Assembly: GCA_964565775.1 (NCBI GenBank)
Contig: CAZMGB010000009.1
Span: 65,062 to 129,061 of the forward strand
Direction of reading: 5' to 3'
Length of the DNA: 64,000 nucleotides
From: an uncultured Dehalococcoidia bacterium
GTDB taxonomy: Bacteria; Chloroflexota; Dehalococcoidia; DSTF01; JALHUB01
Both the position numbers and the translations under genes were made by a program. The notes beneath the pieces were generated by a model, which was not told the DNA's origin, did no database searches, and was given only the letters and a program-made list of their open reading frames with translations. Of the stretch, positions 24,538-47,245 are shown in pieces (the first letter of the stretch is position 1; every line of letters begins with the position of its first letter).

Positions 24538-27500
24538 TTACGGCCCGTAGTAGACCTTCAGCGGCACCCAGTCCAGGAAGAAGTCGCGGAAGGCGTTGTC
24601 GCTGTTCGACGTCACCCGCAGCCGGAAGTTGGCGTTGCTTAGCTCCGCTGACGACCACGTCCTACCCCAGGTGTCAGTTGAGCCACCCAGGACTGCCGTG
24701 TGCTCGAACATCGTCTCTATATTGTCCGTCTTCGCCGCCGTCCAGGAGGCGCCGCCGTTCCAGGAGAGCTCCACGCTCATGCTGCTGGTGCTGTAAAAGG
24801 TGCTGTCCAGCCACCAGTCGAGCCGCACCTCGATGCCCGAGACGGAGCAGCCTGCCGGGATGGAGACGCCGTAGTTGTAGAAGCGGTGGCGGTCACCGGC
24901 GCCGTCGTAGTTGACGGCGAACCAGGCGCCGTCGGTGAAGGCGTTGGTGGAGTTCTCCTCGAAGCCGTCGCCGTCACCACCAGTGTCGGCGGCGTCGGCC
25001 GTCGGGTTCAGGTAGCCGGTATCACCGGCCGTACAGGTCGCTGTCGCCGTAGGTGTGTGAGTAGGCGTGACGGTAGCCGTAGGTGTGGGTGTGGCAGTGG
25101 GCGTTGCGGTGGCCGCCGAGGTCGGGGTGGGCGTGGCGCCACATTGGATCACGACGTCGTCGAAGTAGACCTCGGTGCTTTCGTCGTTGAAGGTCTTCTT
25201 GTTGTTATAGGCGCCTATGGTGAGGGTGTGTGTACCGGCGGTCAAGAACGGGGTCAGGGTGGCGCTCTGCCAGCCCGTGTCCATCGTGAATCCGCCGTTG
25301 CCGTCGCCGACGAGTTGGGCGAGGTAGTCGTGGCCGCCGGTGCCGTACAGGGTTCCGTCGATGGACAGCAGGGCCTGCCCGTACTCGTCGGACTCATAGT
25401 TGGCCGCGAGGAGCAACCGATAACGCAGGTCCAGCGTGACCGTCTGGTCGTAAGCGAGGACGAACTGTTTCGACCAGCCGCCGGACATCCCCAAGATAGC
25501 GAAATTGTCGATGTCACCAAGCAGGACCTCGAGGCCGCCGCCGGTGAAGCCGCCCGCAGGCTCGTAGGTGCCGCTGGCGTAGGCGGGTGCGCCGGTGCCG
25601 CGGAAGGTGTCGTCGGAGTAGGCGAAGCCCTCGGCGTCGGAGTCGAAGTGGGCATCGAGCGAAGGACAGCCGCCGGGGGTGGGTGTAGAGGTCGGCGTGC
25701 TTGTAGGTGTGTTGGTGGGCGTGGCGGTCCGTGTTGGGGTAGGCGTAGCAGTCGGTGTCGGTGTGAATGTCGGCGTAGCGGTCGGTGTTGCTGTGAACGT
25801 CGGTGTGGGCGTCGACGTCGGCGTGAATGTCGGCGTGGGTGTCGGCGTAGACGTGGGGGTTGAGGTGGACGTGTTGGTAGGAGTGGCGGTGGGCGTCGGG
25901 CTAGGCGTAGATGTAGGCCTTGCAGGCCCGTAGTAGACCTTCAGCGGCACCCAGTCCAGGAAGAAGTCGCGGAAGGCGTTATCGCTGTTCGACGTCACCC
26001 GCAGCCGGAAGTTGGCGTTGCTTAGCTCCGTTGCCGACCACGTCCTGCCCCAGGTGTCAGTTGAACCACCCAGCACTGCCGTGTGCTCGAACGTTGTCGC
26101 TGTACTATCAGTCTTCGCCGCCGTCCAGGAGGCACCGCCGTTCCAGGAGAGCTCTACGCTCATGCTGCTGGTGCTGTAAAAGGTGCTGTCCAGCCACCAG
26201 TCCAGCCGCACCTCGATGCCCGAGACGGAGCAGCCTGCGGGGATGGAGACGCCGTAGTTGTAGAAGCGGTGGCGGTCTCCGGGCCCGTCGTAGTTGGCGG
26301 CGAACCAGGCGGCGTCGGTGAAGGCGTAGGTGGGGTACCACTCGAAGCCGTTGCCGTCGCCGCCGCTGTCAGCGAACTGCGCCGTCGGGTTCAGGTAGCC
26401 GGTATCACCGGCCGTACAGGTCGGCGTCGCTGTCGCTGTGGGCGTGTGCGTAGGCGTGGCGGTGGCCGTAGGGGTAGGAGTGGCGGTAGGCGACGGGCTA
26501 GGCGTAGATGTAGGCGTTGCAGGCCCGTAGTAGACCTTCAGCGGCACCCACTCCAGGAAGAAGTCGCGGAAGCCGCTGTCGCTGTTCGAGGTCACCCGCA
26601 CTCGGAAGTTCGCGTTGCTTAGCTCCGTTGCCGACCACGTCCTGCCCCAGATGTCAGTCGAACCACCCAGCACTGCAGTGTGCTCGAACGTCGTCTCCGT
26701 ATTGTCCGTCTTCGCCGCCGTCCAGGACGTACCACCGTCCCAGGACAGCTCTACGCTCATGCTGCTGCTGCCGAATGTGCTGTCCAGCCACCAGTCCAGC
26801 CGCACCTCGATGCCCGAGACGGAGCAGCCTGCGGGGATGGAGACGCCGTAGTTGTAGAAGCGATGGCGGTCACCGGCGCCGTCGTAGTTGCCAGCGGCGA
26901 AACCGCCGTCGGCGAAGGCGTAGGTCGGGTACCACTCGAAGCCGTTGCCGTCGCCGCCTGTGTCGGCGGCCTGCGCCGTCGGGTTCAGGTAGCCGGTATC
27001 ACCGGGCGTACAGGCCGGCGTGGGAGTGGAGGTAGCCGTTGGAGGCTGCGTCGGGAAGGCGGTTGCCGTCCCGCGCGGGGGCCGCATGTAGATGTTCTCG
27101 GTCCGCGTCTGCGTGACGTCTCCTTCGACGGACGTGATGCTGACGGTGAGGAGATCGCCGCTCTTCGATGCGCTGAATCCGGACGGCGCCAGGTTTCGGG
27201 CCACCGTCTGGCTGGACGGCGTTCCGTCCACCGTCAGAGTACGCACGAGCTCGTCGCCGGACTGCGCGTACGCGCTCTCATAGGTCGTGCCGCTGACGAC
27301 ATCCATCCACCTGAGGGTCACGCTGTCGGGCAGCACAGTAGCCAGCTCCGACACTGCCATCTGCGCATCCCGGTTCAGCCACTCGAAGGCGGTGCCGTAG
27401 TCGTGCGCCACCGCCAGCCTGTCGTGGCCGCGCCCGGTAGCGTTCAGGAACTGAAACGTAGCCGTCGAAAGGAGGCCGAGGATCAGTGTGGCGATGGCCG

Positions 27501-27555
27501 AGGCCACCATGACTTCGACCAGAGTGAAGCCCGCCTCGCCTGCTTTCCCTCTCAT
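24538..27555 (-). CDS. giant (1005 aa) type IV pilin-like protein with class III signal peptide, three tandem ~165-aa domains, Thr/Pro linkers and a central jellyroll-like domain
   Basis: N-terminus [29 protein letters not shown] is a prepilin cleavage/N-methylation site (G|FTLVE). Three repeats ([10 protein letters not shown]...[28 protein letters not shown]...[13 protein letters not shown]...[13 protein letters not shown]) are separated by (T/S)P-rich linkers. Confidence 0.6.
24541..25035 (-). repeat. intragenic tandem repeat unit 3 (~495 bp, ~90% nt identity to the other units)
   Basis: The first ~100 nt (ggcccgtagtagaccttcagcggcacccagtccaggaagaagtcgcggaagg...) recur almost verbatim at about 25924 and 26521. 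Confidence 0.7.
25924..26418 (-). repeat. intragenic tandem repeat unit 2
   Basis: See unit 3. Encodes residues ~380-544 of the pilin-like protein. Confidence 0.7.
26521..27012 (-). repeat. intragenic tandem repeat unit 1
   Basis: See unit 3. Encodes residues ~182-345. Separated from unit 2 by a 34-aa TP linker. Confidence 0.7.
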
Positions 27556-35002: not shown

Positions 35003-36043
35003 CTAGTGGCCGATGAGGTTCAATATCTCCTCTTCCAGCGCCGCGAGATTGCGGCCCAGGAGCCCTATGAAGACGTTCCTGGTGCGGCCGTCGCAGAAGG
35101 AGCGGCCGCCGGTAATGAATATCACGGCCAGCTTGACGTTGCCCAGCACCTCCCAGAAGTGCACGGCCTGTTCATCGACGCGCAGGCCGCTGTACTTCTC
35201 GTACAGGCTGTAGAACCGCTGACGTTCGAGCAGGCCGCCCACAAGCTCGTCGCGGGCCCAGCGCCAGGGCATGATGCAGAACCAGCCGACGTCCTCCATG
35301 GGGTCGCCGAGGTGGACCATCTCCCAGTCGAGCCAGCCCCGGATGCTGTCGGCGCTGTAGAGGAAGTTGCCGGTGCGGTAGTCCGCATGGACGAGCGCTA
35401 TCTTCTGGGCGGGCGGCGGCGGGTGACGCCTCAGCCAGCGAAACGCCGCCTCCAGGACGGGGTAGGGCTCCAGGGCGTCCTTGCGGAGCGTCTCCTCCCA
35501 CCTGGTGACCTCTCTCGGCCCGCAGTCATCGGGGCCGTCTGGGACGCCGAGGGAGTCCAGGCCCCGCGCCCTCCAGTCGACGTTGTGAATGTCGGCCAGG
35601 ATCTGGACAGCGTGCTCCGCGATCCTGGCGCGTCCGGCCGCGTACTCCTCTGTGATCAACACCTGGGGCGACGTCTCGCAGCCGTCGATGCGCTCCATGA
35701 CGAAGAAGGGGCGGTCCAGCCACTGGCTCTCCTTCTCCAGCCAGAACACCCTGGGGACGGGGATAGCGGTGTCGGCGAGGGCGCGGTAGACCTGGAACTC
35801 GATGTCACGCTCTGTCTCCAATACGCTGGCCTCTGGGTCGCGTCGGATGACGAAACCGCGCTGTACCTCGCGTCCTCCCTCGTGCCAGCGTGCGTCGAAG
35901 GACCAGGTCTCGCGCGAGGCGCCTCCGGGGATGCGGTTGAGGCCGGTGACTGCGAGCTCTTTGGCCTCGGGCAACTTGCTTTGCAGGTAGGCGGCGATCT
36001 TCTCTTCCAGCACTTCAATCCTCCCGACGGCGTACAGGCCCAT
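35003..36043 (-). CDS. phosphotransferase family protein (APH / choline-kinase-like)
   Basis: ALVHADYRTGNFLY...WLDWEMVHLGDPMEDV shows the Brenner HxD catalytic loop and the DxxxD metal-binding motif of aminoglycoside-phosphotransferase-like kinases. Confidence 0.65.
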   Translation of the reverse strand: MGLYAVGRIEVLEEKIAAYLQSKLPEAKELAVTGLNRIPGGASRETWSFDARWHEGGREVQRGFVIRRDPEASVLETERDIEFQVYRALADTAIPVPRVFWLEKESQWLDRPFFVMERIDGCETSPQVLITEEYAAGRARIAEHAVQILADIHNVDWRARGLDSLGVPDGPDDCGPREVTRWEETLRKDALEPYPVLEAAFRWLRRHPPPPAQKIALVHADYRTGNFLYSADSIRGWLDWEMVHLGDPMEDVGWFCIMPWRWARDELVGGLLERQRFYSLYEKYSGLRVDEQAVHFWEVLGNVKLAVIFITGGRSFCDGRTRNVFIGLLGRNLAALEEEILNLIGH

Positions 36044-36169
36044 TGTAGCCGCTCCCGCTGCCCAGGCAAGACCCGTTCTTACTTCTCGTCATGCCCGCAG
36101 TCCTTGACATCGCCGCGCGCAGCCGTATCATGCAGCGAGGCGCCTGTGCGACATGGAAGGAGAGGAACG

Positions 36170-36574
36170 ATGGCTACCGATGAAGAACGACGCACTTTCC
36201 TGCGAGACCACCGGCTGGCTGTCCTCGGCACGTTGGGGGCGAGCGGGCGGGCCCAGCTTTCGCCCGTCTACTATCTCTTCGACGGGCAGCGCATTGTGGT
36301 CTCGACGACGGCGAACCGGGTGAAGGCGAAGAACGTCCGCCGCGACGGCCGGGTCACCCTCTGTGCCCTGGCAGAGGAGCCTCCTTTCGCCTACCTGACG
36401 GTCTACGGCCGGGGTGAGATCGTCGAGGAGAACGTGGTGGAGACGATGATGGCGATCGGCGAGAGGATGCTGGGGCGGCCTCTCGGCGAAGAACAGAGGC
36501 CTGCCATCGAGGAGCGCGCCCTCCGGGAGGGTCGGGTGGTGCTGCAAATAACGCCTCAGTCATTCTCCCCGTAG
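36170..36574 (+). CDS. PPOX class F420-dependent oxidoreductase (pyridoxamine 5'-phosphate oxidase family)
   Basis: MATDEERRTFLRDHRLAVLGTLGASGRAQLSPVYYLFDGQRIVVSTTANRVKAKNVRRDGRVTL is the typical TIGR03618-type small split-barrel protein. ATG at 36170 has a GGAAGGAGAGG RBS. Confidence 0.65.
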   Translation: MATDEERRTFLRDHRLAVLGTLGASGRAQLSPVYYLFDGQRIVVSTTANRVKAKNVRRDGRVTLCALAEEPPFAYLTVYGRGEIVEENVVETMMAIGERMLGRPLGEEQRPAIEERALREGRVVLQITPQSFSP

Positions 36575-36853
36575 GCGCTGCGACAGCGTCGGCGCTGCTT
36601 CAGCGGCGCTGTCCCCGCGCCCTCTACACCGTCCGAACGGCAGGCCTTTGCTGCTCCTCCTGGTCGATGTGCGGCTCAGCGGTCGGCCCCCAATATCCTC
36701 GGGCATATTGTCATTTACCTACCGGCCGATAATCATTTGGAGGCTCGCTCCGATAATGGCGATGGTAGCGTCAACGCGCCACGGGCCAGCCCGGCCGGGT
36801 GAGTATCGGCATGTCGCGAGCACGGTCGGGCTGGAGGACGACTCGCCCCAATA

Positions 36854-39800
36854 ATGTCTAGCTGGAGTTCGGTCCGAGGACGAGCCATTCTGGCAGGAGT
36901 GGTGTTCATGCTGCTCCTGGCGGGTGTGGCGGTGGTCGCGATCTGGCGTGCCCAGGGCATGCAGCACCGCCACGGGGCGCTGGAGCACACGTCGGCCGCT
37001 GTTGCGAGCCTGAGCCGCGCCCACGCCCGATACTTCGAGGGACAGGCGGCGGTTAGCGCACTGGTGTGGTCGCAGGACCCGGCGCTCGCCGTGATCTACC
37101 GCCAGTATGAGGCGGAAGTCCAGCAGGATCTAAGCGTGGCTCGAGCTGAGACTCTCGCGGCGGGCTACGTGGACGGCGCCGCCGCCCTCGACGAGCTCAA
37201 CGAACGCATAGGCCGGTTCAACGCGGAACTGGAGTCGGGCATCACCGCTGTCCTGGAGGCCACGCCGGAGGAGGCACAGCGGATGGGGGTCGCGAGGCTG
37301 TCGGAGGCGATGCCTGAGGGTTCCGCCATCAGTGCCGAACTCGACCAGTTGGTGAAGGAAGAGCAGGACGCCCTGGCGGGCGAGCGGACGGAAGCGGATC
37401 GGGCTGCGGACATCACCCTGGCGCTGTTGATAGCGATCACCACGATTGCCTTCGTGGTTGGGTTCGGGGCCCTGGCGATGCTCGTCGTATCAGTGGCGCG
37501 CCCCCTGGCTTCGTTGCGGGCCAGCGTCAGGGCCATCGCATCGGGGGACCTGGAAGCGAGGGCGAACGTGTCGGGCCCCCAGGAAGTGGCTTCTCTTGCC
37601 CGGGACTTCAACGAGATGGTGGACGAGCGCAGGCGGGCGGAGGAGGCGCTACGTGAGAGCGAATCAAAGTACCGCAGCATATTCGAAAACGTGCAGGACA
37701 TCTATTACCGGACAGATGAGAAGGGCATCATAACCGAAATAAGCCCGTCGGTGGAGCGCTGGGGATACACCCGCTATCAGCTGATCGGCACACAGGTGCT
37801 GGACGTTTACGCGGACCCGGAGGAGCGCTCAGCGCTCTTGAAAGCGATCCAGGAACGCGGGGAGCTTCTCGACTACGAAGTGCATCTCAAGACGGGTGAC
37901 GGCCACGTCAACGAAACGTCTGTCAGTACTCACGTTATCCGCGGCCCCGATGGCACGTTCGCCGGAGTCGAAGGTACGCTGAGAGATATCGCCGAGCGCA
38001 AGCGGGCGGAAGAGGCGCTGCGCGCCAGCGAGGAACGCCTGCGCACCTTGGTCACGAATGCACCCGTCATCCTGTTCGCCATAGACGCCGAGGGAGTGTT
38101 CACCCTCTCGGAGGGCAAGGGTCTGGATGCCATCGGGCTGCGACCGGAGGAAGTTGTTGGCCGCTCCGTCCTCGACGTGTTCCCCAGCGTGCCAGACATC
38201 GCCGAGAACATCCAGCGCGCCCTCGCTGGTGAAACGTTCGGCGTTACGCTGGAGGTAGCAGGAGTCACCTTCGAGACCCGCTTCACGCCGATCCGGGACC
38301 GCGACGGCAGAGTCGTCGGCGGCATCGGCGTTGCCACTGATATCAGCGAGCGCAAGCAAGCGGAGACGGCCCTGAGAGAGAGCGAGGCGAAGTACCACAA
38401 CCTGTTCGACACTAGCCGCGATGCCATCTTCATCGCTGATGCTTCCACGGGTGAGATCGTGGACGCCAACGAGGCGGCATGCTCTCTCATGTCCCTGCCG
38501 AAGCGGCGGGTCGTGGGCATGCATCAATCCGTCCTCCATCCACCCGAGGAGGCAGAGCGCTATCGCAGCATTTTCGCTGAGCACGTAGCTTCCGGGACGG
38601 CGATCACAACCGATATCTACGTTCAGCGCCCAAACGGGGAGCGCATTCCGGTCGACATATCCGCCTCCACGTCTGTCCTTGGGGGACGACTCTTGATCCA
38701 GGGAGTGTTTCGAGACATCAGCGAGCGCAAGCGGGCGGAGCAGGCGCTCCGCGAGAGCGAGGCGAAGTACCGCACCATATTCGAGAATGTGCAGGACATC
38801 TACTACCGGACAGATGAGAAGGGCATCATCACCGAAATAAGCCCGGCTGCGGAGCGCTACGGATACACCCGCGAAGGGCTAATCGGCACGCAGGTGCTGG
38901 ACATCTACGCGGATCCGGAGCAGCGCTCAGAGCTCTTGAAAGTGGTTCTGGAGCGCGGCGAGGTTGTCGACTACGAGGTACGTCTCAAGACGGCTGACGG
39001 CCGTGTGATCGATACGTCTGTCAGTACTCACGTCATCCGCGGCCCCGACGGCGCGTTCGCAGGTGTCGAGGGTGCCCTAAGAGACATCGCCGAACGCAAG
39101 CAGGCAGAGCAGGCACTCGCCAGGCAAACCGCTCTTGTGCAGGCAATGAACCGGGTGTTCGAGGATGCCCTGACGTGCGAAAGCGAAGAGGCGGTGGCTC
39201 GCACGTGTCTGGCAGCGGCCGAGCAGTTGACCGGGAGCAAGTTCGGCTTTATCGGCGAGGTGAATCAGGCGGGTCGCTTCGACACGCTTGCTTTGAGCAA
39301 TCCGGGTTGGCAGGCTTGCACAATGCCTCGCTCCGATGCGGTGAAGGCGATAAGGGATATGGAGATCCGCGGCATCTGGGGCAGAATAATCGAGGATGGA
39401 CGACCGCTGACGGCCAACGATCCCAGCTCTCACCCTGATCGAGTCGGGACTCCCGACGGACACCCGCCGATCATCGCGTTCCTTGGTGTCCCCTTGAAGC
39501 ATGGTAGCGAGACAATCGGGCTGATCGGCGTCGCCAACAAAGAGTCGGGCTATGACTCGGCTGACCAAGAAGACCTGGAGTCGCTAGGCGTGACCTTCGT
39601 AGAAGCGTTGATGCGCAGGCGCGCGGAGGAGGCGCTGCGGGAGCAGGTGCGGCACGACCCGCTGACCAGCGTGCTCAACCATGCAGCGATCATGGAGGAA
39701 CTGCGCGACCTGATTTCCCAGTCTGGCACCGATGCCTCGCATGCCGTAGCGATGGTCGATGCCGACGGCCTGAAGGCGCTAAACGACACGTACGGTCACC

Positions 39801-41296
39801 AGGTCGGCGACGCCGTGCTCGTCGCAGTTGCACAGGCGCTCTCCAGGGACGGCGCTATCGTCGGCCGGTACGGAGGGGACGAGTTCCTGACAATCCTGCC
39901 GGGCGCCGACCGCGACGCGGCAGAGCGCTACCGCGACGCCGTCCTCGGGGCGGTCGAAGATACGTCCCTCACCGATCCGGAGACGGGCGCGAGCGTACCG
40001 GTCGCTGTCGGCTTCGGCCTCGTAACCTACCCGACCGAAGCCGAGAGGATCGAAGATCTGATCAAGCTGGCCGACAGCGCGATGTACGCCACAAAGCGGC
40101 AGCGGCCCGTGGACGCAACCGGCAGGGCTTCGCGGCGGCCCCTGCGCGACGAGCGCGCAGCGAGGATGGTGGGGGAGCTCGTGCCCCTGCTGACGTCCCC
40201 GGGCAATCTCAACGACAAGCTGCAGCTCGTGGCGCATCGGCTATCCATCGGTGCGGGCTACGACGGGGTCGACTTCACGCTGTTCGACTCTTGGCGCGAG
40301 GCACCGACGGCACAGAACACGTTTGCCGAGGCGCCGGAGGGACTCATCGATGCATGGAACCGCAAACAGCGGGAAGACGGCAACGCCCCGCTGCGAGCAA
40401 TCTTGGAGCGCACGCGCCGCCCCGTCGTCTTGGACGACCCACAACACGACGAGCGCGTACCCGATATGGAGCGGGAACTGCTCCGTGCAGCCGGACTGCG
40501 GTCGGCCATGATCGCGCCCATGATCTGGCGGAATGAGCTGATCGGCCACGTCTCGGTCGCCAGCAAGCGGGAAGCGGCCTTCGGGCCCCGTGACGCCCAG
40601 TTCTTGATGACCATCGCCACCCAGGTCACGGCTGTCGTGCGCATGGCGACACTGGTCGAGGAGCTCCAGGCAGCCTCTGACCGCCTCGCGGAGGCCAGAA
40701 CCGAGACCGTTATGCTGCTCGCCGCCTCCGCCGAGGCCCACGACCACACCACCGGTCTCCACCTCCAGAATGTCCGCGCCATCACCGAAGCCCTGGCACG
40801 CCAGCTCGGCTACGGCGAGGAGGACGCGAGGGAGCTTGGCCTGGCGGCCGTCCTCCACGACATCGGCAAGGTGCGCGTGCCCGATTCCGTCCTCGGCAGC
40901 ACCGGCCGCCTCTCGGACGAAGAGTGGGAGCTGATGAAGCACCACAGCACCTGGGGTGAGCAGTTCCTGAGGAAGAGACGGGGCTTCGAGCTCGCCGCCA
41001 CCATCGCCCGCTCCCACCACGAGCACTGGGACGGCAGCGGCTACCCTGAGGGCCTGTCTAGCGAAGCTATTCCCGAGGCCGCCACCATCGTTGCCGTCGC
41101 CGACGCCTTCGATGCGATGATCAGTGACCGCCCCTACAGGGCGGCCCGCTCCGTCACCGCAGCCCTGCGGGAGATCACCGCCTGTTCGGGCACGCAGTTC
41201 AGTCCCAAGGTGGTGCAGGCCATGGCGACGCTCCGCAGGCGAAAGATGCTTCCGCTCACCCTCGCCGACGCTCCAGACGGGAAGGCCGCCGCCTAG
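36854..41296 (+). CDS. multidomain c-di-GMP signalling protein: TM-HAMP-PAS(x4-5)-GAF-GGDEF-GAF-HD-GYP
   Basis: 1480 aa. N-terminal TM plus HAMP-like (ASGDLEARANVSGPQEVASLARDFNEMVDERRRAEEALRESE), repeated PAS modules, GGDEF active site RYGGDEFLT, and HD-GYP motifs HDIGKVRVPD and HHEHWDGSGYP. Confidence 0.85.
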   Translation: MSSWSSVRGRAILAGVVFMLLLAGVAVVAIWRAQGMQHRHGALEHTSAAVASLSRAHARYFEGQAAVSALVWSQDPALAVIYRQYEAEVQQDLSVARAETLAAGYVDGAAALDELNERIGRFNAELESGITAVLEATPEEAQRMGVARLSEAMPEGSAISAELDQLVKEEQDALAGERTEADRAADITLALLIAITTIAFVVGFGALAMLVVSVARPLASLRASVRAIASGDLEARANVSGPQEVASLARDFNEMVDERRRAEEALRESESKYRSIFENVQDIYYRTDEKGIITEISPSVERWGYTRYQLIGTQVLDVYADPEERSALLKAIQERGELLDYEVHLKTGDGHVNETSVSTHVIRGPDGTFAGVEGTLRDIAERKRAEEALRASEERLRTLVTNAPVILFAIDAEGVFTLSEGKGLDAIGLRPEEVVGRSVLDVFPSVPDIAENIQRALAGETFGVTLEVAGVTFETRFTPIRDRDGRVVGGIGVATDISERKQAETALRESEAKYHNLFDTSRDAIFIADASTGEIVDANEAACSLMSLPKRRVVGMHQSVLHPPEEAERYRSIFAEHVASGTAITTDIYVQRPNGERIPVDISASTSVLGGRLLIQGVFRDISERKRAEQALRESEAKYRTIFENVQDIYYRTDEKGIITEISPAAERYGYTREGLIGTQVLDIYADPEQRSELLKVVLERGEVVDYEVRLKTADGRVIDTSVSTHVIRGPDGAFAGVEGALRDIAERKQAEQALARQTALVQAMNRVFEDALTCESEEAVARTCLAAAEQLTGSKFGFIGEVNQAGRFDTLALSNPGWQACTMPRSDAVKAIRDMEIRGIWGRIIEDGRPLTANDPSSHPDRVGTPDGHPPIIAFLGVPLKHGSETIGLIGVANKESGYDSADQEDLESLGVTFVEALMRRRAEEALREQVRHDPLTSVLNHAAIMEELRDLISQSGTDASHAVAMVDADGLKALNDTYGHQVGDAVLVAVAQALSRDGAIVGRYGGDEFLTILPGADRDAAERYRDAVLGAVEDTSLTDPETGASVPVAVGFGLVTYPTEAERIEDLIKLADSAMYATKRQRPVDATGRASRRPLRDERAARMVGELVPLLTSPGNLNDKLQLVAHRLSIGAGYDGVDFTLFDSWREAPTAQNTFAEAPEGLIDAWNRKQREDGNAPLRAILERTRRPVVLDDPQHDERVPDMERELLRAAGLRSAMIAPMIWRNELIGHVSVASKREAAFGPRDAQFLMTIATQVTAVVRMATLVEELQAASDRLAEARTETVMLLAASAEAHDHTTGLHLQNVRAITEALARQLGYGEEDARELGLAAVLHDIGKVRVPDSVLGSTGRLSDEEWELMKHHSTWGEQFLRKRRGFELAATIARSHHEHWDGSGYPEGLSSEAIPEAATIVAVADAFDAMISDRPYRAARSVTAALREITACSGTQFSPKVVQAMATLRRRKMLPLTLADAPDGKAAA
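40643..41217. repeat. left arm of ~575-bp near-perfect inverted repeat (3' end of sensor gene 1; HD-GYP module)
   Basis: The encoded 190+ aa are identical to the C-terminus of the convergent gene. Track ORFs 40810-41004(-) and 43216-43410(+) give identical peptides. 41124-41405(+) and 41420-43096(-) share their first 31 aa. Confidence 0.8.
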
Positions 41297-41599
41297 GCCG
41301 AGCAGCCAGGGGTCAGCCAGCCCTGCGCAGCGGCACAGGCGAAGAGCTCGCCGCAACGACACGCACTACGAACCCCATCGACTCCGACAGCTAGCTCCCG
41401 GTTAGCGCTACGCTGAATGTCATCGCGCGGACCCGCGCAGTACAGGATCGAGGTCGCAGGGCGAGCGAAAGGGGGCTTGCGTGCGTGCCTTTCGGCCTGT
41501 AGCCTTGGGTTGGACCCACCGATCGATGCAAGTCTGCCACCAGTCCCGGCTGCGACCCCATCGTCGGACGCTACCTAGGCGGCAGCCACCGGCCGAGGG

Positions 41600-42880
41600 A
41601 TGCCCGTCGCGGCCGACAAGAGCGGAGGTGCTCCCGTGAGAACCCTCTACATAGACCTCAGTCTCCAACGACTCGTCGCCACACAGCTCCGCAGTCGCCT
41701 GCCGCGCCCCTGGCGCCGCAGCGCCTACTTCGGCCGTCTGGCGCCGCTTCAGGAGGCGGACATCCCGTCGCCGTCGCTGCCGGGGCCGCGCTGGGTGCGC
41801 GTCCGCAACCGCATCTCCGGCATCTGCGGCTCCGACCTGCACTTCGTGATGGCGCACGGCGATCTCCGTATCGCGCCGGCAGCCCTGCCTGGGACGGCCT
41901 ACCGCAACTATATGGGACACGAGATCGTGGGCGACGTGGTCGAGGTGGGGTCGGAAGTGACGAAGCTCAAGATTGGCGACCGGGTGACACAGGAGATGTC
42001 GGGGGGCAGTTGCATGGCCGTGGGCCGCGAGCCCCCCTGCCGCTACTGCGCCGAAGGCAACTATGCGCTCTGCGAGGCCGTACCTCCGAAGGACGAGCCC
42101 CACGGCACCGGCGGCGGCTGGAGTGAGGAGTGGACATCGCCCCAAGGCAGTCTCTACAAGCTCCCCGACGACATCACGGACGAAGACGCCGTCCTCATCG
42201 AGCCCGCCGGCTCCGCCGTTAGGGCAGCCTTGCGAAAGCGGGCCCAGCCGGGCGACAAGGTGATGGTCATCGGCTGCGGCACCCAGGGCCTGTTCACCGT
42301 CCAGGCGGTTCGGGCGGTTCAGCCGTCCTGCGAGATCACGGCCCTGGCCCGCTTCGACTACCAGGCGGAGATGGCGCGCAAGGGCGGCGCCGACCACATA
42401 ATCATGCTCGGCGCCGACGCCTACGCCGAGGTGGCGCGTCTCACCGGCGGCAGGTTGTACAAGGGCCTCCTGGGTAACAAGGTTATTCTGGGCGGCTTCG
42501 ATGTCGTCTACGACTGCGTTGGTCTCCCCAACACGCTGCGCGACGCCCTCCGCTGGGCCCGCTCCCGCGGCACCGTCGTCATCGTCGGCGTCTACCTCAG
42601 CCCGATGAAGATCGACCTGACCCCTGTCTGGTACAACGAGGTGAACCTCGTCGGCGTCATGGCACACGGTATGGAGGAGTGGGAAGGGGAGCGCCTGTCC
42701 ACATTCGACCTGATTGTACGCTGGATAAGGGAGGGGAAGCTGAAGATGGAAGGCTTCATCACGCATCGCTTCCCGCTCTCCGAGTATCGCGAGGCGATCC
42801 TGACCGCCATCGAGCAGCCCCGCACCTCTTCCATCAAGGTGATCTTTGACATAGCGAACCGGCCACCTGAGAAGAGGTGA
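41600..42880 (+). CDS. zinc-dependent alcohol dehydrogenase family (MDR superfamily) enzyme
   Basis: ISGICGSDLHFV...GHEIVGDVVEVGSEVTKLKIGDRV (catalytic Zn site), Cys cluster for structural Zn (C..C..C.......C), Rossmann VMVIGCGTQG. Lies in the unique segment between the inverted-repeat arms. Confidence 0.7.
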   Translation: MPVAADKSGGAPVRTLYIDLSLQRLVATQLRSRLPRPWRRSAYFGRLAPLQEADIPSPSLPGPRWVRVRNRISGICGSDLHFVMAHGDLRIAPAALPGTAYRNYMGHEIVGDVVEVGSEVTKLKIGDRVTQEMSGGSCMAVGREPPCRYCAEGNYALCEAVPPKDEPHGTGGGWSEEWTSPQGSLYKLPDDITDEDAVLIEPAGSAVRAALRKRAQPGDKVMVIGCGTQGLFTVQAVRAVQPSCEITALARFDYQAEMARKGGADHIIMLGADAYAEVARLTGGRLYKGLLGNKVILGGFDVVYDCVGLPNTLRDALRWARSRGTVVIVGVYLSPMKIDLTPVWYNEVNLVGVMAHGMEEWEGERLSTFDLIVRWIREGKLKMEGFITHRFPLSEYREAILTAIEQPRTSSIKVIFDIANRPPEKR

Positions 42881-42923
42881 GCCTCGTGCGCGCGCTGATG
42901 GCCGGGGATTGGGGGCGGTCGGG

Positions 42924-45900
42924 CTAGGCGGCGGCTTTCCGATCCCGGGACTCCGCGATCGTAGTCGGCAGCAGTTTCCGCCTGCGGAGCCGTGTGATGG
43001 CCCGCACCACCTTGGGACTGAACTGCGTGCCCGAACAGGCGGTGATCTCCCGCAGGGCTGCGGTGACGGAGCGGGCCGCCCTGTAGGGGCGGTCACTGAT
43101 CATCGCATCGAAGGCGTCGGCGACGGCAACGATGGTGGCGGCCTCGGGGATGTCGTCGCCAGATAGGCCCTCAGGGTAGCCGCTGCCGTCCCAGTGCTCG
43201 TGGTGAGAGCGGGCGATGGTGGCGGCGAGCTCGAAGCCCCGTCTCTTCCTCAGGAACTGTTCACCCCAGGTGCTGTGGTGTTTCATCAGCTCCCACTCTT
43301 CGTCCGAGAGGCGGCCGGTGCTGCCGAGGACGGAATCGGGCACGCGCACCTTGCCGATGTCGTGGAGGACGGCCGCCAGGCCAAGCTCCCTCGCGTCCTC
43401 CTCGCCGTAGCCGAGCTGGCGTGCCAGGGCTTCGGTGATGGCGCGGACATTCTGGAGGTGGAGACCGGTGGTGTGGTCGTGGGCCTCGGCGGAGGCGGCG
43501 AGCAGCATAACGGTCTCGGTTCTGGCCTCCGCGAGGCGGTCGGAGGCTGCCTGGAGCTCCTCGACCAGTGTCGCCATGCGCGCGATACCGGCGACCTGGG
43601 TGGCAATGGCCATGAAGAACTGCGCCTCGTTAGGTCCGAAGGCCGCCTCCCGCTTGCTGCCGACCGCCAGGAGGCCGACCGCCGTATCCTCCAAGAGCAA
43701 CGGTATGACAAGGCCTGACCGCAATCCCGCTGCACGGAGCAGTTCTCGCTGGCGCGCAGGGATCCGGTCGTCGTTCTCGATGTCCTCGAGAACGACGGGG
43801 CGGCGCGTGCGCTCTAGCAGGAGGCGCAGAGGGTGGGGCAGCTCCCACTCTGACCTTACGTCCTGGTCCCAAGCCTCGACGAGTCCAGCCGGCAACCGTC
43901 CGAACGACTGTGACACGGTCGCACCGCCGGAATCGGGTGAAAACATGGAGAAGCTGACGGCCTCACAGCAAGCGCCGATCGACAGACGATGCGCCGCCAG
44001 CCGCAGCTTCTCGTCGACGTCGCCAGGAGACGTCAGGAGTGGCATAATCTCCGACACCATCTTTGCGGCGCGCTCATTGCTCAAGGGCTGCGGCAGGTCC
44101 TCGTCGGCTGATCCGATCGGCCGCTGGCGTTTCGCGGCGTACATCTCACTGTCGGCCAGCTTGATCAGATCCTCGATCCTGCCGGCTTCGGTCGGGTAGA
44201 CCACGAGTCCGATGCTGACGGCGATCGGTACACTGGCGCTCGTCTCCGGATCGCTCAGATCAGCGCCTGCGAGGGTCGCGAGCACGGCGTCGCGATAGCG
44301 TAGGGCCGCGGGCCGATCGGAACCCGGGAGGAGTGCCACGAACTCGTCGCCTCCGTACCGACCGACGATAGCGCCGTCCCTGGAGAGGGCGCGTGCCACC
44401 TCTACCAGGACGGCGTCGCCGGTCTGGTGGCCAAAGGTGTCGTTGATCGCCTTCAGGCCATCAACGTCGACCATCGCTACGGCATGCGTGGGGCCATCGC
44501 GGCGATCGGACAAGAGGTCCTGCAGCTCCTCCACGATGGCTGCATGGTTGAGGGCGCCGGTCAGCGGGTCGCGCCGCGCCTGCTCCCGTAGCGCCTCCTC
44601 CGCCCGCTTGCGCTCGGTGATATCACGGAAGATGCCGCGTGTGGCGACCGGCTTGCCATCCTTGAAGCTACAACCGGCGGAGCCCTCAACGATGATCGTC
44701 CTGCCGTCCTTGCCGACGAACTTGGCCTCGACCCCAACGACGTTCTCTCCGGCCAACACACGCCGAAAAGTCTCCGCGCAGAACTCCCTGCTATCGGGAT
44801 GAATCATGTCGAGGAGAGTCAGGCCGGGGATCTCTTCCTCGCTGTACCCCAGCGCTTCCCGCCAGGCCCGATTGACGTAGACAAAAGAGCCGTCCGGCGC
44901 GACGCTCTGGATCAGGTCGCTGGCGCTCTCAAACAGGCCCCGGTATCGCTCCTCGCTCTCACGCAGGGCATCTTCCGCCTGCCTGCGCTCGCTGACGTCG
45001 CGGAATATGCCGCGGATGGCAGTCGGCGTCCCGTCCTTGAAGCTACAACTGGTGCTGCCCTCAACGATGATGTCTTTTCCGCCCTTGCTAATGAACTTAG
45101 CCTCGAGGCCGACCACCGTCTCTCCGGCCAATACGCGCCGGAAGACATCCATGCAATGCTCTCTGCTCTCGGGGTGAATGATGTCCGGCAGCGACAGGCC
45201 GGGGATCTCGTCCTCGCTGTACCCCAGCGCTTCCCGCCAGGCCCGATTGACGTAGACAATAGAGCCGTCCGGCGCGACACCCTGGATCAGGTCGCTGGCG
45301 CTCTCAAACAAGCCTCGGTATCGCTCCTCGCTCTCGCGCAGGGCCTCCTCCGCGCGCTTCCGCTCGGTGACGTCATAGGTTGTGCCGATTACGGCTGTTT
45401 CCCCCTCGAATTCAATAGAGGCAGCGCTGTAGTCCACCCAGCGCTCTTCACCGCTCTTTGTGAGGAGCTTCAGCTCGTACCGGGGCGGAACGTCGGCTCC
45501 CCGCTGACGTGCCACACCCCGATCCCTCGCCATGTCTCTGGAATCTGGGTGAATTACCTGCCAGAAATCAGCGCCCACAAGCTCCTCTCGCGTAAAGCCG
45601 GTGAGCGTCTCGGCTGCGGCGTTGACGTAGCGGACTTTGGTCCCCTGGTAGATGAATATGGCGGCCGCAGTGGTGTCCGCCAGTTCGCGAAACTTCGCTT
45701 CGCTCTCGCGAAGCGCCTGCTCCATTCGCTTGCGCTCGCTTATGTCCCGGGCGATTCCCTGTATGGAGAAGGGCTCGCCGTCCTTGTAGATCAGGCGGGT
45801 GCTTATCTCAAGTGGCACCAGGCGGCCGTCGCTGGCGATGATCTCCGCCTCATACCTCGTCGGCCCGCCTCGGGCGACCTTGCGCCGGATCATCTCCTGG

Positions 45901-46883
45901 GCCCGGGCTAGCGAGTCGGCCGGCATAATCTCGGCCATGTTCATCCTTTCGGCTCGCCCGCGCGTGTAGCCGAGTACGTCCTCTCCCGCCTTATTGAGAG
46001 AGGTGAAGAGTCCGTCGAGACCGAGTGTGAAGACGATATCGTTGGCGTTCTCGAACAGCTCCTGGTAACGCTCCCTGCTCGCCCGCAGCGCCTCCTCTAC
46101 CTGCCCGCGCTCGGCGACCATCTCGTTGAAGTCCCTGGCGAGGGAAGCCACCTCCTCGAGGCCGGACTCGGTTGCCCTAACCTTCAGGTCGCCCGAGGCG
46201 ATGGTCCTGAGGCGGGTCTGTAGCGAAGACAGGGGGCGTATTACCGACGCAACGAGGCTGCTGAGCGTCACGGCTCCTCCCAGGAGGACAAACACACTGA
46301 GCCCGAGCAACAGGAGGAGGGAGGTGGCCGCGGCACGGTCCGCTGCCGCCCGCTCGGCCGCAAGGGTGCCCTGCTCTTGCTGGGCCAGCCGGTCGAGTTC
46401 GTGACCGATGGCGTACGCCTCAGGCATCAGCTCCGGCAGACGCGCGACGGCCGCCTCCAACGCCTCCTCCGTACTGGCCTGGGAGACAGCGGCGGCGGCG
46501 GGCACTATTCCTTCCTCAAACCGGCTGATTCGTCCAATCAGGCTGTCCAGGGACACAGCGAGGTCGCCCTCGTTGTCGGCCAGGGCCTCGGCATGGGCCA
46601 GGCTCAGTTGCTGCTTGACGTCCGACGCAGCCTGCAGGTACAGGTCGCTCGACGGCGTCTCCTGTGCCGAGGCCGGGACGGCAAGGAGCGCAACTCCCTC
46701 GAAGAAGCGGGCATGGGCGCGCTCCAGAGAGGCGGCGACGAGCGATGTATGCTCCAGCGACTCGTGTCGTTCCTGCATGTCGCGGGCACGCCAGACCGCC
46801 ACCACACCCACAGCCGCCAGGAGGAGCACGAAGAGAAGCCCCGTCAGGAAGGCCCGCCCTCGGGCTGATCTCCAACTGAACAT
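42924..46883 (-). CDS. multidomain c-di-GMP signalling protein, paralog of 36854-41296: TM-HAMP-PAS(x5)-GGDEF-GAF-HD-GYP
   Basis: Start MFSWRSARGRAFLTGLLFVLLL aligns with MSSWSSVRGRAILAGVVFMLLL of the paralog. GGDEF site is RYGGDEFVA. HD-GYP C-terminus is identical to the paralog. In-frame ATG at 46883 within track ORF 42924-46931. Confidence 0.85.
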   Translation of the reverse strand: MFSWRSARGRAFLTGLLFVLLLAAVGVVAVWRARDMQERHESLEHTSLVAASLERAHARFFEGVALLAVPASAQETPSSDLYLQAASDVKQQLSLAHAEALADNEGDLAVSLDSLIGRISRFEEGIVPAAAAVSQASTEEALEAAVARLPELMPEAYAIGHELDRLAQQEQGTLAAERAAADRAAATSLLLLLGLSVFVLLGGAVTLSSLVASVIRPLSSLQTRLRTIASGDLKVRATESGLEEVASLARDFNEMVAERGQVEEALRASRERYQELFENANDIVFTLGLDGLFTSLNKAGEDVLGYTRGRAERMNMAEIMPADSLARAQEMIRRKVARGGPTRYEAEIIASDGRLVPLEISTRLIYKDGEPFSIQGIARDISERKRMEQALRESEAKFRELADTTAAAIFIYQGTKVRYVNAAAETLTGFTREELVGADFWQVIHPDSRDMARDRGVARQRGADVPPRYELKLLTKSGEERWVDYSAASIEFEGETAVIGTTYDVTERKRAEEALRESEERYRGLFESASDLIQGVAPDGSIVYVNRAWREALGYSEDEIPGLSLPDIIHPESREHCMDVFRRVLAGETVVGLEAKFISKGGKDIIVEGSTSCSFKDGTPTAIRGIFRDVSERRQAEDALRESEERYRGLFESASDLIQSVAPDGSFVYVNRAWREALGYSEEEIPGLTLLDMIHPDSREFCAETFRRVLAGENVVGVEAKFVGKDGRTIIVEGSAGCSFKDGKPVATRGIFRDITERKRAEEALREQARRDPLTGALNHAAIVEELQDLLSDRRDGPTHAVAMVDVDGLKAINDTFGHQTGDAVLVEVARALSRDGAIVGRYGGDEFVALLPGSDRPAALRYRDAVLATLAGADLSDPETSASVPIAVSIGLVVYPTEAGRIEDLIKLADSEMYAAKRQRPIGSADEDLPQPLSNERAAKMVSEIMPLLTSPGDVDEKLRLAAHRLSIGACCEAVSFSMFSPDSGGATVSQSFGRLPAGLVEAWDQDVRSEWELPHPLRLLLERTRRPVVLEDIENDDRIPARQRELLRAAGLRSGLVIPLLLEDTAVGLLAVGSKREAAFGPNEAQFFMAIATQVAGIARMATLVEELQAASDRLAEARTETVMLLAASAEAHDHTTGLHLQNVRAITEALARQLGYGEEDARELGLAAVLHDIGKVRVPDSVLGSTGRLSDEEWELMKHHSTWGEQFLRKRRGFELAATIARSHHEHWDGSGYPEGLSGDDIPEAATIVAVADAFDAMISDRPYRAARSVTAALREITACSGTQFSPKVVRAITRLRRRKLLPTTIAESRDRKAAA
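43003..43577. repeat. right arm of the ~575-bp inverted repeat (3' end of sensor gene 2)
   Basis: Mirror of 40643-41217 about an axis near 42110, which lies inside the ADH gene. Confidence 0.8.
44640..45390 (-). repeat. tandem duplication of a 375-bp PAS-module coding unit (two adjacent ~90% identical copies)
   Basis: Protein repeats ...ALRESEERYRGLFESASDLIQ[GS]VAPDGS[IF]VYVNRAWREALGYSE[DE]EIPGL... occur twice back-to-back. The antisense track ORF 44799-45911 shows the same peptide 125 residues apart. Confidence 0.7.
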
Positions 46884-47245
46884 CGAGCGACCCTTGTCTT
46901 TCACTTGCTGGCGCACGCTCGTGACATGCAAGACTCACGCGGCCGACCTGGCCGGCGCAGTCTATACCCTTCCACTTCGATTATCGGAGGAAGCGGGCAA
47001 GTCATTATCGACCAGTGGGTATAGGGGGAGGCTCTACGCCCCTCGCGCGGCATGTCGAACAAGGGAGAAGCGTGGTCCTGACCTTCGATTGACATAAGCA
47101 CAGGCGTCGGTGGCGGAGCTTCTCGAGTCCAGCGGCAGGCGGGCGGCGCGTACCCGGGCTCGCGCGGAAGAGCCATCCTTCGGCGGCCGGCGGTTGTCAA
47201 ACCGGTCCGGAGCGCGGATGATGGGGCGTGGAAAGGAGGTGCGTG

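Follow-up and report, generated by a model that had tools for sequence, protein, structure and literature searches.

Why do two sensor genes that run towards each other across less than 2 kb of DNA share an almost identical HD-GYP domain, when much of their remaining sequence has drifted apart? The question is raised by a 64-kb stretch of contig CAZMGB010000009.1 from an uncultured Dehalococcoidia bacterium (hereafter the window; all coordinates are positions within it). Here a plus-strand sensor gene, called A, and a minus-strand sensor gene, called B, converge on a gene for an alcohol dehydrogenase (ADH). Our analysis indicates that the HD-GYP segment of these inverted paralogs was very probably overwritten in the recent past by ectopic gene conversion, one copy taking its sequence from the other. 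The parts of the locus that bear on this reading are the following:

36854–41296, plus strand: sensor gene A, 1480 amino acids (aa), with a transmembrane (TM) segment and HAMP, four PAS domains, GAF, GGDEF, GAF and HD-GYP (list of open reading frames (ORFs); Pfam HAMP, PAS, GAF_2, GGDEF, GAF and HD_5)
42924–46883, minus strand: sensor gene B, 1319 aa from its ATG, with TM and HAMP, four PAS domains, GGDEF, GAF and HD-GYP (ORF list; Pfam)
40639–41216, plus strand: repeat arm A, putative conversion tract, codons 1263–1454 of A, comprising the linker helix and the full HD-GYP domain
43004–43581, minus strand: repeat arm B, putative conversion tract, whose reverse complement matches arm A at 568/578 positions
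41217–41296, plus strand: C-terminal tail of A, 26 diverged codons and the stop codon, identical to the tail of B at 56/80 nt
42924–43003, minus strand: C-terminal tail of B, 26 diverged codons and the stop codon (sequence; ORF list)

A repeat search of positions 38000–46500 returned an inverted pair, 40387–41301 and 42919–43833, of 915 nt at 88% identity. Position-by-position comparison delimited a near-identical core, 40639–41216 on the plus strand against 43581–43004, in which 568 of 578 nt agree (98.3%, 10 mismatches) and the longest perfect run between the arms is 260 nt. The edges are sharp: counted per 30 nt, the agreement rises from 23/30 to 30/30 at 40639 and falls from 30/30 to 24/30 at 41217. 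The flanks are identical at 178/252 nt upstream (71%) and at 56/80 nt downstream to the stop codons (70%). At a flank identity of 0.705, the binomial probability of at least 568 matches in 578 is 3e-71. By blastn, exactly two copies of the core are present in the window.

A preliminary description of this DNA had recognised a near-identical inverted repeat of about 575 bp at the convergent 3′ ends, and our comparison agrees closely with it; the proposed outer limits, 40643 and 43577, lie within 4 nt of the true ones, and the inner limits, 41216 and 43004, are exact. The two pairs of antisense peptides named there as identical do match, at 65/65 and 31/31 residues. Two of its statements hold in part. 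Identical protein had been proposed for the last ~190 codons; the tract indeed spans 192 codons, but with three amino-acid differences between A and B (S1403G, E1404D and A1405D), and it is followed by 26 diverged codons. Likewise, the ~70–80% identity given for the upstream domains describes the GGDEF segment (78% nt, 72% aa) but not the GAF segment (66% nt, 51% aa), and most of the PAS arrays cannot be aligned.

The synonymous sites tell at which level the two arms were made alike. The identity of the tract is a matter of DNA-level homogenisation and not of protein-level constraint, because 117 of 120 four-fold sites, defined by a strict rule, are identical inside it, compared with ~57–67% outside (GGDEF 32/53, GAF 34/60, tail 8/12). 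In the codon alignment, third positions of identical A, G, P, T, V, L, R and S codons gave a similar picture, with 110/112 matches in the tract and ~55–65% outside. Purifying selection and codon bias were ruled out as the source of the identity, as the synonymous identity is confined to the tract. The resemblance is therefore not one of amino-acid sequence only, an outcome that the preliminary description had named as fatal to its proposal.

To place the homogenisation relative to other lineages, we used a metagenome contig of 1947 nt from JGI (L029), the source of a syntenic ortholog of A that we call O. The contig is colinear with window positions 39798–41739 at 79.7% nucleotide identity. 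It extends from GGDEF, by way of GAF, HD-GYP, tail and spacer, 100 nt into ADH. Judged by the GAF segment, A is nearer to O (67% aa, 73% nt) than to B (51% aa, 66% nt), and B and O share 50% aa and 63% nt. In the tract the order is reversed, and the two paralogs resemble each other (98% aa, 98% nt) more than either resembles the ortholog (A and O, 88% aa, 86% nt; B and O, 89% aa, 87% nt). Because A and B are closer to each other than to O in the tract, while A is closer to O in the GAF segment, the tract carries, as judged from these alignments, the signature of a gene conversion that would postdate the split from O's lineage. Recent conversion with sharp boundaries, as the preliminary description proposed, is thus in keeping with the outgroup, the synonymous sites and the boundary steps, all of which agree.

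The duplication that produced A and B appears to be much less recent. The best database match of B outside the tract reaches 62% and falls on the same family members that A matches, and in the family comparison A and B are 71% identical at the amino-acid level in GGDEF and 51% in GAF. Since B outside the tract is no nearer to A than to other members of the family, the duplication must be old. No other part is as well conserved across the family as the HD-GYP segment (72–81% aa identity, compared with 50–67% for GAF). In the tract, O is 88% identical to A at the amino-acid level, and the other compared members that span the whole tract are 72–81% identical. No protein more than 89% identical to the tract peptide was found among 5.8 billion proteins, and two protein searches with the C-terminal part gave at most 78–80% BLAST identity overall and at most 89% in the tract alone. 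Exact protein look-ups of full-length A and B returned no record, an exact 30-mer from the tract had no match in the JGI metagenomes, and searches for the locus through ADH yielded relatives at no more than 84% identity.

Homology between the two genes also extends to their far ends. A blastn comparison of the left half of the window with its right half aligned 36716–37660 with 47021–46077 at 68%, which covers the N-terminal 270 codons and 138 nt ahead of both starts:

36716–36853, plus strand: sequence preceding A, homologous to that preceding B at 47021–46884

Because the homology takes in the N-terminal codons and the upstream regions of both genes, A and B are best described from their sequences as whole-gene inverted paralogs, 5′ flanks included, whose PAS arrays would have been remodelled since. 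The ORF of B reaches further than its ATG, to a TTG at 46931. A carries an additional GAF_2 domain (residues 776–916, window ~39080–39620) between the PAS array and GGDEF that has no counterpart in B, and the alignment of the two genes shows a gap of ~150 codons opposite residues ~750–922 of A. Within A, two non-adjacent PAS units (37624–37923 and 38722–39021) are 85% identical at the nucleotide level, and within B two tandem units (44583–44882 and 44958–45257) are 79% identical. Short helical linkers of the ERKRAEEALRESE type recur between PAS units across A and B and give rise to many short direct and inverted repeats.

Pfam confirmed the PAS-GGDEF-GAF-HD-GYP architecture that had been proposed for both genes. 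The HD_5 profile is matched over positions 10–170 of 170, with E=2e-32 in A and 1e-33 in B, and both proteins contain LHDIGK and HHEHWDGSGYP, which classes them as HD-GYP proteins. Domains of this kind measure ~170–180 aa and combine an HD motif with the consensus HHExh(D/N)GxGYP (bioRxiv 10.1101/2021.11.05.467447). GGDEF was likewise recognised in both (E~1e-32), with RYGGDEF in both translations, so that a cyclase is predicted by sequence. The HD_5 match in A covers residues 1296–1453, and the end of the tract (codon 1454) coincides with the end of this match; the tract starts within the helix that links GAF to HD-GYP.

From these observations we propose the following course of events. A and B would be old inverted copies of one membrane-bound PAS-GGDEF-GAF-HD-GYP sensor for the turnover of cyclic di-GMP (c-di-GMP). 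Homologous recombination between them, through strand invasion, templated synthesis and heteroduplex repair, would have replaced ~578 bp of one copy with the sequence of the other, a stretch that takes in the entire HD-GYP phosphodiesterase domain, and the sensor, GGDEF and GAF parts as well as the last 26 codons would have retained their earlier divergence. The inverted repeat of 578 bp at 98.3% identity flanking a 1787-bp core would then be a by-product of the conversion. Since HD-GYP is the most conserved segment across the family, and thus already the most similar between the copies, it would have been the likeliest site for strand invasion, which may be why the tract sits there.

We infer a RecA-type mechanism by analogy with the tuf genes. 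In Salmonella enterica, the inversely oriented EF-Tu genes tufA and tufB undergo RecA-dependent non-reciprocal transfer, with tracts that walk on average ~500 nt each way and are shortened and reshaped by mismatch repair (PMC5485169). The tract of 578 nt agrees with this mean walk of ~500 nt in either direction (PMC5485169). Apart from the patch described below, the arms differ at four isolated positions (40678, 40939, 40960 and 41014), all of them synonymous third positions, or 0.7% over the rest of the tract. These differences would reflect either the time since conversion or patchy mismatch repair.

The other six of the ten differences fall together in a short patch:

41056–41071, plus strand (partner 43149–43164): 16-nt patch with 6/10 of the arm differences, directly after the GYP motif, encoding SEA in A and GDD in B

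None of 200,000 random placements brought the differences so close together. The version in B agrees with O at five of the six sites, whereas A uses codons ending in A or T (GAA, GCT, ATT) that look unusual against the 66% G+C of the window. The patch may be an unconverted island, the seam between two abutting tracts (40639–41055 and 41072–41216), or a later clustered change in A.

Which copy was the donor can be addressed from the outgroup alignment. As the nearest outgroup of the tract is the ortholog of A (88% identity, compared with 72–81% for other members), A is weakly favoured as the donor. A distinguishable ortholog of B by which the conversion might be polarised was not found, the best match being 62%.

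The donor could also have been a third HD-GYP paralog elsewhere in the genome that converted A, B or both. This group of organisms has a large family of such proteins, with 1303 homologs at E<=1e-20, many of them from Dehalococcoidia, and HD-GYP domains are prevalent in Chloroflexi (bioRxiv 10.1101/2021.11.05.467447). In addition, the visible genome amounts to only 64 kb, and another copy might have given A its patch of A/T-ending codons by micro-conversion. Set against this, the window contains no third copy, the nearest outgroup of the tract is the syntenic ortholog of A, which fits A as the source, and a distance of 1.8 kb favours direct exchange between A and B. We therefore regard a third donor as improbable.

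Several points weigh against a single conversion between A and B. The tract is carried by one genome only, so that neither non-reciprocity nor the direction of transfer is directly observed. Synonymous sites outside the tract are near saturation and can neither date nor polarise the event, and polarising through synonymous divergence to L029 met the same saturation and gave no signal. A single uninterrupted tract would not contain the 16-nt SEA/GDD patch, a third copy in the rest of the genome could be the donor of one or both arms, and the assignment of the ten differences to their arms is putative.

A repeat of this kind in metagenomic DNA also brings up the assembly itself. The repeat, the assignment of its variants or the orientation of its core might have been made by the assembler, for example by using one segment twice or by cross-polishing. 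The window does look metagenomic, its nearest relatives being Dehalococcoidia/Chloroflexota metagenome-assembled genomes (MAGs), and A and B have no full-protein record. Moreover, a short-read graph alone cannot orient the core between inverted repeats of 578 bp whose longest perfect run is 260 nt. Nevertheless, the arms differ at ten sites, including the six-site patch, and thus were not simply copied. An identical ADH protein was found on one other contig only, a contig of 1847 nt (L011) from the Logan assembly of SRR14802573. It equals window positions 41187–43033 with zero mismatches and so consists of the unique core and, at either end, exactly 30 nt of the adjoining arm (k-1, k=31). The Logan assembly did break at the repeat, but the contig stops 30 nt past each inner boundary, as it would if both junctions were present in the reads. 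Because a k=31 graph breaks in this way where a unique segment enters repeats, the raw reads of SRR14802573 support both inner junctions. L029, from another organism and another assembly, in turn shows GAF, HD-GYP, tail, spacer and ADH uninterrupted, in the same order and orientation. An artefact, which the preliminary description had named as a way in which its proposal could fail, is therefore quite unlikely, given that a second, independent assembly breaks precisely where the arms meet the core.

What lies between the arms is the subject of a further proposal, that of an inversion. The unique core of 1787 bp (41217–43003) contains both tails, the ADH gene and a leader in front of it:

41636–42880, plus strand: Zn-dependent medium-chain dehydrogenase of the ADH family, 414 aa (Pfam ADH_N, ADH_zinc_N)
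41471–41635, plus strand: conserved non-coding ADH leader, 165 nt, aligning with L029 (~1679–1843) and with a second relative, L015 (423–585)

The assignment of the middle gene to the ADH family was confirmed by Pfam, with ADH_N (E=2e-21) followed by ADH_zinc_N (E=5e-18). The gene starts with GTG preceded by GGAGG. B is convergent with it and its stop codon lies 43 nt from that of ADH, and the stop codon of A lies 339 nt upstream of the ADH start. The best genome matches of ADH are Dehalococcoidia/Chloroflexota MAGs at 68–72%. The leader is strongly conserved in three genomes, with shared blocks that include CTGTAGCCTT, GATCGA, CCCGGCTGC and GTCGCGGC. RNAalifold, applied to these three sequences only, returned a stem-rich fold with three compensatory pairs, and an Rfam search of 34–50 kb gave no match at E<=0.1, leader included. 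The leader may act as an operator region or encode a regulatory RNA. A simple scan of 41100–43100 for terminator-like and sigma-70-like sites found none, a scan that is uninformative for this kind of organism.

According to the most ambitious reading of the core, it is a working recombinational switch: the 1787-bp segment would flip often enough to be of use, swap the tails and place ADH behind either sensor, and the identity of the repeat would be selected. The arms share a reading frame, and both isomers leave both genes intact. The repeat, at 578 bp and 98% identity, gives RecA-type recombination ample homology. The inversely oriented tuf genes do recombine (PMC5485169). However, the payload would be small, as the poorly conserved tails of 26 residues differ at only 11 of them. 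ADH also points the same way in the relatives, with A as the reference in L029 and the PNPOx gene of the left flank in L015. The 165-nt leader lies inside the invertible segment and is kept even in L015, which lacks A, and it thus travels with ADH. Of the two outcomes of a flip named in the preliminary description, the exchange of C-terminal tails (26 aa, 11 differing) therefore stands, but ADH would keep its own upstream region, because the leader lies inside the core and would be taken along.

Two further observations speak against a switch. No recombinase or transposase was detected by Pfam among the 14 flanking ORFs scanned (nine in 31.7–51.2 kb and four large ones elsewhere; the small ORFs were not all scanned), so that the dedicated recombinase of a programmed inversion is missing among these ORFs. 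The arrangement is also not a conserved device, given that L015 has no gene A at this locus. L015 is a JGI contig of 2048 nt (Ga0315554_1036956) whose ADH is 84% identical at the amino-acid level. In it, the 3′ end of a PNPOx-like gene (window 36188–36578) joins the ADH leader (window 41471 onward) directly, and the 4.9 kb that carry sensor gene A in the window (36579–41470) are missing. No 3′ end of an HD-GYP gene follows ADH in L015 within 221 nt. The arrangement of A and B converging on ADH was likewise absent from the distant ADH loci (L001–L003 and L016–L019) and from the sensor homologs (L012–L014). The presence of a sensor at the ADH locus varies among lineages, since L015 lacks A while L029 has A followed by ADH.

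A search of the literature on inversion rates between bacterial inverted repeats gave nothing directly usable. The 1.8-kb core could physically invert, but nothing supports that it does, and an inversion would have little apparent payload; that it works as a switch is extremely improbable. We consider it highly unlikely, too, that an identical HD-GYP module is maintained by repeated conversion on two differently tuned sensors, with SEA/GDD protected as a determinant of partner or regulatory specificity and with a core that flips ADH and the tails.

The remainder of the window is ordinary, GC-rich chromosomal DNA (65.8% G+C). The neighbours scanned are metabolic in kind; their ORFs match the Pfam families metallo-beta-lactamase, APH, PNPOx, UPF0047, FlpD, MTHFR, glutamate synthase and oxidoreductase, or have no match. 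Two long ORFs on opposite strands overlap at 35003–36574, the minus-strand ORF at 35003–36043 being an APH-family phosphotransferase. In the plus-strand ORF of 522 codons within this interval, only the C-terminal ~130 codons match a family (PNPOx_N), and the real PNPOx-like gene is therefore probably short, at about 36.15–36.57 kb as in L015. The 558-codon ORF at 41420–43096 on the minus strand is mere antisense of ADH, and the 1005-aa ORF at 24538–27555 (minus strand) has no Pfam match at E<=1e-8.

How does the reading of domain-limited conversion compare with known systems? As in tufA/tufB, inverse paralogs share a tract of hundreds of nucleotides, here 578 nt with a mosaic patch. In the tuf genes, however, which are essential, highly expressed and separated by 762 kb, homogenisation takes in all 1185 nt, whereas A and B, convergent 4-kb multidomain genes only 1.8 kb apart, are homogenised in a single domain and 50–80% identical in the rest, and their case is known from sequence alone. 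The survey by Wang and Chen (2018) describes concerted evolution that recurs, persists over long times and affects entire genes, most of them from key pathways (PMC6053082). The likeness to these cases is that the tract paralogs are more alike than orthologs between genomes; the difference is that we see one segment in one lineage and, apparently, one recent episode.

The predicted proteins resemble the GAF-HD-GYP (PmGH-type) and GGDEF-linked c-di-GMP phosphodiesterases in having a full HD-GYP domain with HD and HHEHWDGSGYP, preceded by GAF and a linker helix. A and B differ in that they also carry an intact GGDEF domain, HAMP and several PAS domains, so that their net activity may be that of a cyclase or of a phosphodiesterase. 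Systems with invertible coding segments, such as type I hsdS loci, shufflons and intragenic invertons, rely on a dedicated site-specific recombinase that acts at short repeats, and they are seen in both orientations. A and B share with them inverted repeats within coding sequence and an inversion that would swap C-terminal coding ends. In contrast to these systems, the repeat is a homologous domain of 578 bp, no recombinase is found among the nearby ORFs scanned, and the contigs compared show a single orientation.

The locus is a new instance of a well-known process, as gene conversion between inverted bacterial paralogs is textbook knowledge. It is unusual only in that the conversion stops at a single catalytic domain of a c-di-GMP sensor with many domains, in a lineage that is uncultured. 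The genome, of Chloroflexota type, offers a natural case of gene conversion limited to one domain. For practical work, phylogenies or orthology calls made from the HD-GYP part of A/B-type sensors will mislead, and short-read assemblies of this locus are interrupted by the repeat, which makes it ambiguous how the core is oriented. For the biology of the two sensors, A and B now share one output domain, and because this domain is common to both, any functional difference between them must reside in the PAS/GAF inputs, the three-residue patch or the tails.

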